NCBI GenBank assembly: GCA_947581895.1
Contig: CANPWE010000005.1
Span: 1-59,911 of the forward strand
Length of the DNA stretch: 59,911 nucleotides
From: an uncultured Clostridia bacterium
GTDB taxonomy: Bacteria; Bacillota; Clostridia; TANB77; CAG-508
Direction: 5' to 3'
The position numbers were made by a program, and so were the translations under genes. Position 1 is the stretch's first letter, and each line of letters opens with the position of its first letter. Positions 28,553 to 28,793 of the stretch are shown here, piece after piece. The notes beneath the pieces are model-generated. The model did no database searches, had not been told where the DNA came from, and saw nothing but the letters and a program-made list of their open reading frames with translations.

Positions 28553-28793
28553 TACAGTTACTGTTTAATACTTTTGCAATAAGCCGTCAAATTCAATAGT
28601 TATGTAATGCAGGAAAATATATTAATATTCCGTTCGTTTACTGGCGCTTGAGTTTTGAGGAAGACGTTAAGTGGGAGCGCCAAACTGCGCACTCCACTAC
28701 ATATTAATATATTTTCCTGCATTACATAACTATTGAATTTGACTACTCTACAAAGTTTAGTTATGTGGGAAGTGTTAAATAGTAACATATTAC
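28553..28793 (+). repeat. Palindromic repeat element, full copy 1
   Basis: 42 bp perfect inverted arms at 28588..28629 and 28701..28742. The 71 nt core contains a GC-rich inner stem TGGCGCT (28642..28648)/AGCGCCA (28676..28682). Conserved flanks are shared with copy 2. Confidence 0.85.

Follow-up and report, generated by a model that had tools for sequence, protein, structure and literature searches.

Bacterial MITEs are non-coding, multi-copy and mostly intergenic sequences of 100-250 bp that end in inverted repeats, are bordered by target-site duplications, fold to long hairpins, leave truncated or decayed copies and often lie beside promoters or gene ends (PMC10969869). Those with long hairpin potential include Correia/CREE (Neisseria), ERIC/IRU and YPAL (enterobacteria), Chunjie (Geobacter) and the RPEs (Rickettsia) (PMC10969869). 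MITEs are poorly catalogued in Clostridia, and none is described from this group in the same 2024 review (PMC10969869). The palindromic element presented here shares the features listed above, except that putative target-site duplications are seen at two copies only. However, it has no sequence similarity to the named MITEs and no parent IS is known for it; it also differs from them in being almost wholly palindrome, with near-perfect arms of 43-84 bp whose substitutions are strictly compensated, and in having a core, rather than termini, as the module conserved between subfamilies. REPINs are likewise non-autonomous hairpin repeats, made of two inverted halves and a spacer, which leave singlet or partial remnants and in whose mobile hairpins compensatory changes are documented (PMC3116915). 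They measure ~70-110 bp and have conserved REP ends and a variable spacer, the reverse of our element, in which the core is conserved and the arms vary (PMC3116915). REPINs make no target-site duplication and are defined as a system by a linked single-copy RAYT gene, whereas none was seen for our element in the 60 kb and the short loci inspected.

Two further systems are relevant to the arms and to their position. Template switching that perfects imperfect inverted repeats is an established mutational mechanism (PMC7202029). This quasipalindrome correction turns an imperfect inverted repeat into a perfect one in one step, as we infer for the arms of the element (PMC7202029). It was demonstrated in E. 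coli, phage T4 and yeast by means of short reporters and is not a property of an element family; for our element it is proposed. Invertons are invertible, phase-variable promoters found in gut bacteria, among them the flagellar and cwpV switches of Clostridioides difficile. Like the element, they have inverted repeats around a short stretch of DNA immediately upstream of genes in gut Firmicutes.

The window (the whole stretch of 59,911 nucleotides that was analysed) belongs to an uncultured, low-GC, spore-forming gut Clostridia lineage and contains two intact copies, one decayed copy and one compound remnant (36-160), as follows.

28557-28786, forward strand: copy 1, full element of 230 bp (covariance model score 192 bits)
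28557-28573 and 28770-28786, forward strand: outer inverted repeats of copy 1
28574-28585 and 28744-28769, forward strand: left and right spacers of copy 1
28586-28628, pairing with 28701-28743: arms of copy 1 (43 bp, 100%)
28629-28700, forward strand: GC-rich core of copy 1 (72 nt), with the inner helix GTTT..GGCGCT/AGCGCC..AAAC
49587-49815, reverse strand: copy 2, full element of 229 bp (covariance model score 184.9 bits on the minus strand)
49630-49672 and 49744-49786, reverse strand: arms of copy 2, enclosing the core at 49673-49743 (71 nt)
93-160, forward strand: copy 3, the outer 25 nt of the right arm and the right flank, in copy-1 orientation
36-93, reverse strand: older remnant, a diverged left flank and left arm in copy-2 orientation, joined to copy 3
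16068-16308 (ends approximate), reverse strand: copy 4, full-length, AT-decayed or divergent, between the convergent rnr and gerAC-side genes
16134-16151 and 16227-16244: inner arms of copy 4, still perfect

Going inwards, the element has outer inverted repeats of 17 bp, then an asymmetric internal loop and perfect arms of 43 bp around a non-palindromic core of 72 nt, with ~55% GC in a 25% GC genome. Its size ranges from 229 to 240 bp across copies, well within the limit of ~500 bp used for MITEs, and its ends are of the type GTTACTGTTTAAT. The outer flanks form an imperfect inverted repeat, matching at 15/17 positions in copy 1 (GTTACTGTTTAATACTT vs AAGTGTTAAATAGTAAC) and at 13/19 in copy 2, where arm pairing reaches 48 nt at 96%. 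Relative to copy 1, copy 2 is reverse-complemented; the two are 91% identical over 229 nt, and the copy 2 sequence is identical in three other metagenome assemblies. The original prediction had correctly recognised two copies with perfect arms, a core of ~71 nt (72 and 71 nt here) and the inner helix, present in both; its arm length of 42 bp becomes 43 bp, and its limits for the two copies give way to the conserved units listed above. It had missed the inversion of copy 2, the pairing of the outer flanks and the direct repeats described below. A third, partial copy was also rightly announced, with its span now 93-160 in place of 82-165. This copy 3 is 78% identical to 28719-28792 (nhmmer E = 2.6e-12). 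The older remnant that it abuts is a weak match judged by eye (E = 1.4), its reverse complement CTTTTGCAGGAGACCATCAAA...ATATATTATT corresponding to CTTTTGCAATAAGCCGTCAAA...ATATATTAATAT of copy 1, and probably continues past the start of the window. Copy 4 aligns co-linearly with copy 1 from end to end, with 69.5% identity over 105 nt by blastn and a full-length covariance model match of 29.8 bits (E = 1.1e-5). Distances of 12-21 kb separate the copies, which are scattered between housekeeping genes.

The intact copies are by far the longest local inverted repeats of the window, in which a 21-mer of the arm occurs 5 times against 0.03 expected by chance. The whole element is predicted to fold with -101 kcal/mol (z = -11.9) when taken as RNA and with -56.7 kcal/mol (z = -12.2) when taken as DNA. 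As first proposed, the element has neither coding capacity nor, in the window copies, a T-tract tail: the copies have no reading frame in common, their ORFs differing in frame, and the longest ORF, of 62 aa over copy 1, has no homologue among 5.8 billion proteins. Several readings of the core or arms were dropped: a small protein encoded in the core (frames not conserved), a tRNA-like core (none found by ARAGORN, and the core ends do not pair) and a sigma-54 promoter, cre box, dif/Xer site or Spo0A box (partial by-eye matches only).

Four more loci were found outside the window, in three other genomes. Related copies occupy non-homologous loci in two rabbit-gut Clostridia MAGs (L001, L003 and L004) and in one close relative (L015), which brings the sample to a still small total of six full copies, two of them orthologous (L003 and L004). 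An exact-arm scan of 185,579 species genomes returned three true loci and one chance match (L002), and a metagenome scan only a chance match in high-GC DNA (L005). Viral contigs gave no match to the arm pattern, and the ~190 loci found there with two core patterns were all chance matches by nhmmer; plasmids and phages, searched by blastn with the element and with its left end, yielded no meaningful match, nor did the element ends match plasmids significantly. Contigs fetched through RlmN and S15 homologues of close and distant relatives yielded one new variant (L015), an empty site and no further copies, no copy was present in ~350 kb of related-genome loci, and a covariance model search confirmed copy 4 and L015 and found nothing further. 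Five of the copies belong to one arm family and have cores that are 78-97% identical, the left outer repeat being unrecognisable in L001, L003 and L004. L015 retains the core between unrelated 84-bp arms and different ends. Across subfamilies, conservation is highest in the core and not at the termini, a pattern left unexplained by a transposase that recognises termini. The L015 element lies between convergent genes, and its inner hairpin is flanked by A6 and T6 tracts.

Both intact copies are bordered by direct repeats, which begin exactly where the similarity between the two copies stops.

28549-28556, no strand: ATATTACA, the direct repeat to the left of copy 1, interpreted as a target-site duplication
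28787-28794, no strand: right direct repeat of copy 1, ATATTACA, 8/8 identical and abutting the conserved unit
49579-49586, no strand: direct repeat of copy 2, TCTTTATC
49816-49823, no strand: direct repeat of copy 2, CCTTTATC, a 7/8 match to TCTTTATC

The consensus of the copy 2 repeats is YCTTTATC (7/8). At copy 1 the repeat extends imperfectly, over 19/23 nt, into IR-like sequence, and the duplication may therefore not be a simple 8-bp stagger. No direct repeats are visible at L001, L003, L004 or L015, and copies 3 and 4 have decayed too far at their ends for any to be recognised. The orthologous copy-1 site is empty in the closest relatives (contigs L012-L016), which have the same gene order, DUF421-DUF4363-HD(-)-ORF86-rlmN, and a 92% identical RlmN. 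Their spacer at this site measures 155 nt vs 488 nt in the window, keeps the promoter and the sequence ...ACAAAACTTTTG and lacks the element; in L012 the empty site reads ...AAATACAAAACTTTTG. The wider flanks of the copies are unrelated to one another, so the copies are not segmental duplications. Contigs from other samples end inside the element, as is expected of a repeat, and recognising the family helps the assembly and annotation of its uncultured gut hosts. Two further ideas were considered and rejected, namely a core-less older copy immediately left of copy 1, whose alignment score was no better than that of shuffles, and an inversion of the 21 kb that separate copies 1 and 2, which are inverted to each other, since the gene order at the copy-1 end matches that of relatives.

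The arms have changed in concert. Over their 43 pairs, the five arm-family copies have five positions at which both sides changed (12 cells), none with a one-sided change and a single mismatched cell; arm pairing is 99.2%, and the observed covariation score was reached by 0/500 shuffles. The compensation is strictly Watson-Crick, with no G-U in the arms. The single compensated position that had been reported (A28611/T28718 in copy 1, T49655/A49761 in copy 2) is correct, and the accompanying proposal that the hairpin is kept by selection or by arm-to-arm conversion is strengthened by these counts. The orthologous L003 and L004 differ in both arms and hardly in the core: in L004 an L003-like core (97%) lies between inner arms that both resemble those of L001, and L004 is, as we read its sequence, the product of an arm exchange followed by arm-to-arm copying. 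The arm pattern as a whole fits either a DNA-level homogenisation of the arms or selection that favours the hairpin. The correction of quasipalindromes through intramolecular template switching reportedly goes back to Ripley in 1982 and was also studied by the Lovett laboratory (PMC7202029). The present family is a clear natural case of palindrome arms evolving in concert and could serve the study of hairpin or quasipalindrome correction beyond E. coli. At the base of the arms, a 2-nt mismatch (GCC vs GTA) is seen by eye in most full arm-family copies, L003 differing at one of the two positions.

Promoter-like sites lie close to the right of three window copies.

28816-28844, forward strand: TTGACT-17-TACAAT (TG-extended), upstream of ORF 28880, 29 nt past the right end of copy 1
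49845-49873, forward strand: TTGCAA-17-TAAAAT (TG-extended), upstream of rpsO, 29 nt past the end of copy 2
190-218, forward strand: TTGAAA-17-TATAAT (11/12), upstream of rbgA, 29 nt past the right end of copy 3

For four insertions, the gap from the insertion end to the -35 hexamer is 29, 29, 29 and 30 nt, promoter-like sites having a background density of 0.0041 per position and strand. The statement of the original prediction that copies sit just upstream of promoters holds and sharpens to a fixed spacing of 29-30 nt. The ORF 28880 promoter is conserved at that site in the element-free relatives L012-L015. Insertions upstream of the rbgA, rpsO-pnp and rlmN operon promoters may alter the expression of ribosome-biogenesis genes. 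Copies are found in either orientation, and the genes around them are convergent, divergent or in tandem; copy 2 is antisense to both neighbours, and no promoter-like or terminator-like site of its own was found in the element.

From these comparisons of sequence, we consider it likely that the copies form a family, not described before, of palindromic (foldback) transposable elements that are non-autonomous, MITE-like and ~230-240 bp long. A MITE or a hairpin-type transposon relic was among the identities first put forward, and it is this one that gains from the 8-bp repeats, the empty site, the unrelated flanks, the decayed and truncated copies and the copies in other genomes; additional copies and additional covariation were both found, and the wider flanks differ. 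The element would be mobilised by a trans-acting transposase whose gene lies elsewhere. Against this reading, Pfam shows no gene for a transposase, recombinase, HUH protein or RT in the 60-kb window, and direct repeats are confined to the two intact window copies. The proposed transposase would make 8-bp staggered target cuts and would, on that account, probably be of the DDE type. A change in one arm would be erased or copied to the other arm by a DNA-level process, for which intra-hairpin template switching (quasipalindrome correction) and mismatch correction in an extruded hairpin are candidates, with occasional conversion between copies; alternatively or additionally, transposition itself may need the hairpin. 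Integration would prefer a site ~29 nt upstream of sigma-A-type -35 hexamers, and any effects on neighbouring genes (insulation, termination or a hairpin at the mRNA 3' end) would be secondary. A likeness to what we take to be IS6-type ends (GGTTCTGTTGCAAAG vs GTTACTGTT...TTGCAA) was noted and the idea dropped.

A more specific version, which we put forward as tentative and on the whole doubtful, is that the element is a mobile hairpin defined by its structure and not by its termini. The core and the innermost 13 bp of the arms would be recognised by a structure-specific enzyme on the extruded or single-stranded hairpin, the arms would be replaceable as long as they remain complementary, and integration 29-30 nt upstream of the sigma-A -35 hexamer would be guided by promoter-bound RNA polymerase or by the TTGnnn motif. 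If the 29-nt spacing and the pattern of conserved core and replaceable arms hold, they would indicate promoter-guided target choice and structure-based recognition, neither of which is established for bacterial MITEs. Some eukaryotic retroelements are known to integrate at specific distances from promoters or tRNA genes, and such a mobile hairpin would be their bacterial counterpart.

A structured RNA had also been named as a candidate; being non-coding, it would be an sRNA, a cis-acting leader or a 3'-UTR element. Function would then reside in the core, the long stem would be a helix for processing or stability, e.g. an RNase III substrate, and the repeats would be gene copies. This would account for a GC-rich core in such an AT-rich genome, for the very stable predicted fold and for L015, where the core is kept and the arms are swapped for unrelated complementary sequence, the classic pattern of a covarying stem and a conserved loop. 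In the inner core helix, the one-sided changes are all G-U and on the copy-1 strand (7 cells, ~4-5 events), as an RNA would show; pooled with the by-eye mismatches of the outer repeats and of L015, however, the ratio is ~7 to 2, and the overall strand bias is not significant. The Watson-Crick-only arms fit a constraint on duplex DNA or on both strands, and RNAalifold, which favours another fold for the core, gives it next to no covariation support (-0.05 kcal/mol). Among Rfam 15 families, the one match on the element over 28450-28900 at E <= 10 is a spurious plant miRNA precursor, a generic long hairpin (48 bits vs a gathering score of 100); in the whole window, gathering-score matches are limited to four tRNAs. 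The lack of a promoter or terminator of its own, the variety of orientations and contexts, including the antisense position of copy 2, and the transposon features (direct repeats, empty site, decayed and truncated copies) also speak against an RNA, which we judge improbable as the primary identity.

A similarly small probability is given to a REPIN-like or IS200/IS605-PATE-like element, i.e. a single-stranded DNA hairpin moved by an HUH/Y1 transposase (RAYT or TnpA) that reads the fold and the core and not the terminal sequences. The compensated arms recall REPINs (PMC3116915), a conserved core between variable arms would suit such an enzyme, and the GCC/GTA mismatch at the arm base, together with the asymmetric internal loop (both by eye), could mark the strand. 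Direct repeats are absent from L015 and the rabbit-MAG copies, which is in line with this reading, whereas both intact window copies have 8-bp flanking duplications. Y1/HUH single-strand transposition (IS200/IS605) is not known to produce such duplications. No Y1_Tnp occurs among the ORFs of the window and none was noticed beside L001, L003 and L015 among ORFs that were listed or had precomputed Pfam labels. Moreover, 230-240 bp with a 72-nt core is unlike REP doublets, and there is no conserved tetranucleotide target.

Less probable still is a hairpin selected by the host, such as a bidirectional terminator, an insulator or a cruciform-forming site of protein binding, that was spread by recombination or segmental duplication. 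L015 and copy 4 do lie between convergent genes, where a bidirectional terminator would sit, with the A6 and T6 tracts around the L015 inner hairpin; long perfect hairpins (21-22 bp) are used at such sites by this lineage, and use on both strands would need Watson-Crick-only compensation. However, the window copies lack a T-tract, a 72-nt loop is far beyond the usual terminator geometry, copies 1-3 are upstream of promoters and not at gene ends, the dissimilar flanks exclude segmental duplication, and the direct repeats and the empty site indicate insertion.

We give almost no credence to an inverton, in which the 43-bp inverted repeats would be crossover sites and a recombinase would flip the 72-bp core and toggle the adjacent promoter: perfect repeats around a short segment 29 nt upstream of promoters in four cases, and a gene for an XerD-like tyrosine recombinase directly upstream of the L003 copy, would suit it, but the core has one orientation relative to the asymmetric flanks in six/six full copies and likewise in four independent assemblies that cover the two loci of the window, it holds no promoter-like site, copy 4 and L015 have no promoter to control between their convergent genes, the XerD-like gene is absent near the other copies with no dedicated recombinase nearby, and arms of 43-84 bp exceed known inverton repeats, being two to four times longer. 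The recombination site that had been listed as a candidate is likewise not supported, nor is a dedicated inversion site. The ORF just upstream of the L003 XerD-like gene is, from its sequence, presumably spoIIM, which would be the usual housekeeping position of that gene.

An integron attC site was rejected as well, given the dispersed copies, the lack of an integrase and the ends of the window copies (GTTACTG + TAGTAAC), which miss the R''/R' boxes (RYYYAAC...GTTRRRY). The ends of L015, and of L015 only, read ATTCAAC...GTTGAAT and fit the attC boxes by eye.

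We propose that the repeated 230-bp unit is probably a non-autonomous transposable element. In the window, whose GC content is ~25%, no other local inverted repeats are as long as the arm pairs of copies 1 and 2; an arm 21-mer is present 5 times (0.03 expected) and a core 17-mer twice (0 expected). The copies and their parts are as follows.

36-93, opposite strand to 93-160: putative remnant of an older element (diverged left flank and left arm), probably running off the window
93-160: copy 3, the right arm's outer 25 nt and the right flank
~16068-16308, minus strand: copy 4
28549-28556 and 28787-28794: direct repeat ATATTACA of copy 1
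28557-28786, plus strand: copy 1
28586-28628 and 28701-28743: perfect inverted repeat of copy 1, 43-bp arms with a 72-nt segment between
49579-49586 (TCTTTATC) and 49816-49823 (CCTTTATC): direct repeats of copy 2
49587-49815, minus strand: copy 2
49630-49672 and 49744-49786: inverted-repeat arms of copy 2, 71 nt between

Copies 1 and 2 are in reverse-complement orientation to each other, with 91% identity over 229 nt. The conserved flanks outside the arms pair mutually (GTTACTGTTTAATACTT with AAGTGTTAAATAGTAAC), so that the entire unit folds as a single long interrupted hairpin (-101 kcal/mol, z = -11.9 as RNA; -56.7 kcal/mol, z = -12.2 as DNA), and an 8-bp direct repeat brackets each unit (copies 1 and 2). 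These relations had escaped the original prediction, which was correct about a compensated arm position, A28611/T28718 in copy 1 versus T49655/A49761 in copy 2.

The direct repeats are located exactly where the similarity between copies ends. Our own arithmetic (not a tool output), based on base composition with a per-base match chance of ~0.31, gives a chance of ~1e-4 for an 8/8 match and ~2e-3 for 7/8 or better. The contigs of the closest relatives (L012-L016) have the gene order of the window (DUF421, DUF4363, HD on the minus strand, small ORF, rlmN) and retain the promoter of the small ORF and the sequence found in the window after the element, ...ACAAAACTTTTG; they lack the element there, the spacer being 155 nt versus 488 nt in the window. 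More distant relatives also lack it, with no copy in ~350 kb of related loci. The wider flanks are unrelated among the copies, which are therefore not segmental duplications with identical surroundings, a possibility raised by the original prediction. No conserved reading frame was found among the copies. A Pfam scan of nearly all window ORFs >80 aa, leaving out shadow ORFs opposite a longer gene, returned only housekeeping or sporulation genes and ORFs without family match; no transposase, recombinase, HUH protein or reverse transcriptase was found among them, and the element is thus considered non-autonomous.

Some neighbouring features of copy 1 were also recorded. The ~93 nt immediately to its left (28457-28549) are without equivalent in the empty site of the relative L012; their last 15 nt (TTGTTAAAGTATAAC) resemble the right terminal repeat of the element (GTGTTAAATAGTAAC), a likeness that lengthens the direct repeat of copy 1 to 19/23 nt, and the whole stretch aligned to the element scored no better than shuffles. 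In the window (27876-28460) and in L012-L016, a segment with the HD-domain gene and the region upstream of it is inverted versus the related loci L009 (9016-9534) and L017-L019, in which this gene is co-directional with the genes next to it; on the right, the segment ends just before copy 1. No sign of inversion of the core was seen among the six full copies of the element.

Its size, absence of coding sequence and inverted ends fit a bacterial MITE, as do the duplications at copies 1 and 2, the number of copies, the decayed forms and the insertion polymorphism, in agreement with one of the initial candidates. Correia, ERIC, Chunjie and RPE are comparable MITE-like elements and have no sequence in common with this one; no Clostridia family of such kind was found in a review of bacterial MITEs (PMC10969869). 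Unlike bacterial MITEs, however, the element is almost wholly palindromic, keeps its arms perfect, combines a conserved core with replaceable arms and has an apparently fixed promoter spacing. The transposase type, like the targeting of promoters, is something we infer.

This spacing, measured from the element terminus to the -35 hexamer that opens the scan tool's best promoter-like site downstream, is as follows in four cases.

Spacing between element termini and promoter-like sites
Copy 1: element end 28786, TTGACT at 28816, gap 29 nt
Copy 2: element end 49815, TTGCAA at 49845, gap 29 nt
Copy 3: element end 160, TTGAAA at 190, gap 29 nt
L003 (rabbit-gut Clostridia MAG): element end 6176, TTGACT at 6207, gap 30 nt

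The promoter can lie beside either end of the element; its presence in the empty site shows that it belongs to the host. Given a background of 0.0041 promoter-like sites per position and strand, ~0.05 of 13 ends would be expected to have a site at a given offset; although the offset was chosen post hoc, the 29-30-nt spacing of these four cases, few as they are, is unlikely to be chance and suggests a target preference. Weaker outward promoter-like sites accompany two more ends: the right end of copy 2 (at 26 nt) and the left end of copy 4 (at 23 nt). By contrast, convergent genes flank copy 4 and the variant element of L015, and the L001 copy, at a second rabbit-gut locus, is located between a terminator and truA.

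Copy 4, recovered by blastn, nhmmer and the covariance model (29.8 bits, E = 1.1e-5), is full-length, AT-rich and co-linear with copy 1 over its whole length; its inner 18-bp arms are still perfect and ~37/43 arm positions are still paired (by eye). At the window start, a partial copy is indeed present as predicted, but as a compound of two pieces rather than a single unit. Contigs from other samples terminate exactly at these places, as expected of short-read assemblies at a dispersed repeat.

A scan of one genome per species (185,579 species) with an arm 20-mer gave three true loci (L001, L003 and L004), all in two rabbit-gut 'uncultured Clostridia' MAGs, and one chance match; nothing real was found in metagenome and viral collections, plasmids or phages. 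L003 and L004 are one locus in two MAGs, and L001 is a separate locus between cdaA and truA. L004 lacks a ~40-nt right flank of the element present in L003 (6135-6182), where the direct repeat CTCTAC bounds the missing piece and so points to a microhomology deletion. Among the close-relative contigs, obtained via RlmN homologues, L015 (RlmN 92% identical to that of the window) carries a palindrome of 240 bp, whose 84-bp arms contain two mismatches; as DNA it folds at -90.9 kcal/mol (z = -24). The core of this variant, 73 nt long, scores 135 bits against the model and is ~80-85% identical (by eye) to the window core; the arms are unrelated to those of the window except for the innermost ~13 nt (AAATATATTAA). 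The two subfamilies have the core in common and not the termini, which no simple MITE model explains. In L015 (926-965), the left arm of the element encodes the last nine codons and stop (FNQEDSYKN*) of a UDPGP-family gene, whose orthologues stop right after ...KLYNA(R/K) with unrelated tails.

In the alignment of the five copies sharing the arm sequence, counted on the stated structure, 37 of the 43 arm pairs are invariant and five (12 cells) differ on both sides; no pair changed on one side only, and one cell is mismatched. Pairing reached 99.2%, versus 33-41% with partner columns slid, and 0/500 shuffles attained the observed covariation score. The lack of any G-U state in the arms speaks for a duplex constraint or for a mechanism, rather than for RNA-only selection. 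Between the orthologous L003 and L004, the core is 97% identical and the arms only 92%; in its inner arms, left and right alike, L004 agrees with L001. No conversion tract can pass over the core. Most simply, mutation, or conversion from another copy, would have altered one arm, and that change would then have been copied onto the opposite arm. Intramolecular template switching acts exactly so on imperfect inverted repeats (PMC7202029), and compensatory changes across hairpins have been reported for REPINs too (PMC3116915). Transposition limited to hairpin-competent copies might explain the arm complementarity equally well; arm correction is a mechanism that we infer.

The GC-rich core (~55%) does contain the helix GTTT..GGCGCT/AGCGCC..AAAC of the original prediction. 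Variation in this inner helix is only one-sided and always gives G-U on the copy-1 strand (7 cells, ~4-5 events); adding by-eye mismatches from the outer repeats and L015, the strand bias becomes ~7 to 2 and is not significant. As RNAalifold detected essentially no covariation in the core, preferring a different fold, and no Rfam family matched, a role of the core as RNA is possible but unsupported, and a known Rfam RNA was rejected. A REPIN was rejected since copies 1 and 2 have duplications, the conservation pattern is opposite and no RAYT was seen among the scanned window ORFs.

Other features of the window include, at 26150-26196, a perfect 22-bp hairpin that has a loop of 3 nt, is flanked by A and T runs and lies between convergent UDPGP and holin-like genes; at the equivalent position, L009 has a different 21-bp hairpin (~7203-7255) and L015 its 240-bp element. 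Bidirectional terminators made of unusually long perfect hairpins seem to be in use in this lineage. Some 24-35 tandem 8-nt units (47427-47704, consensus near ATATAAGA/AAATAAAA) lie immediately downstream of a spo0A-like gene (47697-48497, minus strand). Tandem repeats of 18 and 36 nt (14710-15015) inside the RNase R gene (13634-16015) encode a low-complexity insert rich in lysine and glutamate. A GerAC-type germination protein (16480-17911) is split into overlapping ORFs for the N-terminal (16982-17911) and C-terminal (16480-17043) domains, with four 39-nt tandem repeats (17093-17248) near the junction; the split may stem from a frameshift or reflect a variant in repeat length. Repeats of ~90 nt, some spaced 192-207 nt (54374-55365), lie inside a 790-aa ORF with an amidoligase_2 domain (54152-56524). 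Finally, a 143-aa protein with a ribonuclease III domain only (Mini-III type; 1331-1762) is encoded directly downstream of rbgA.
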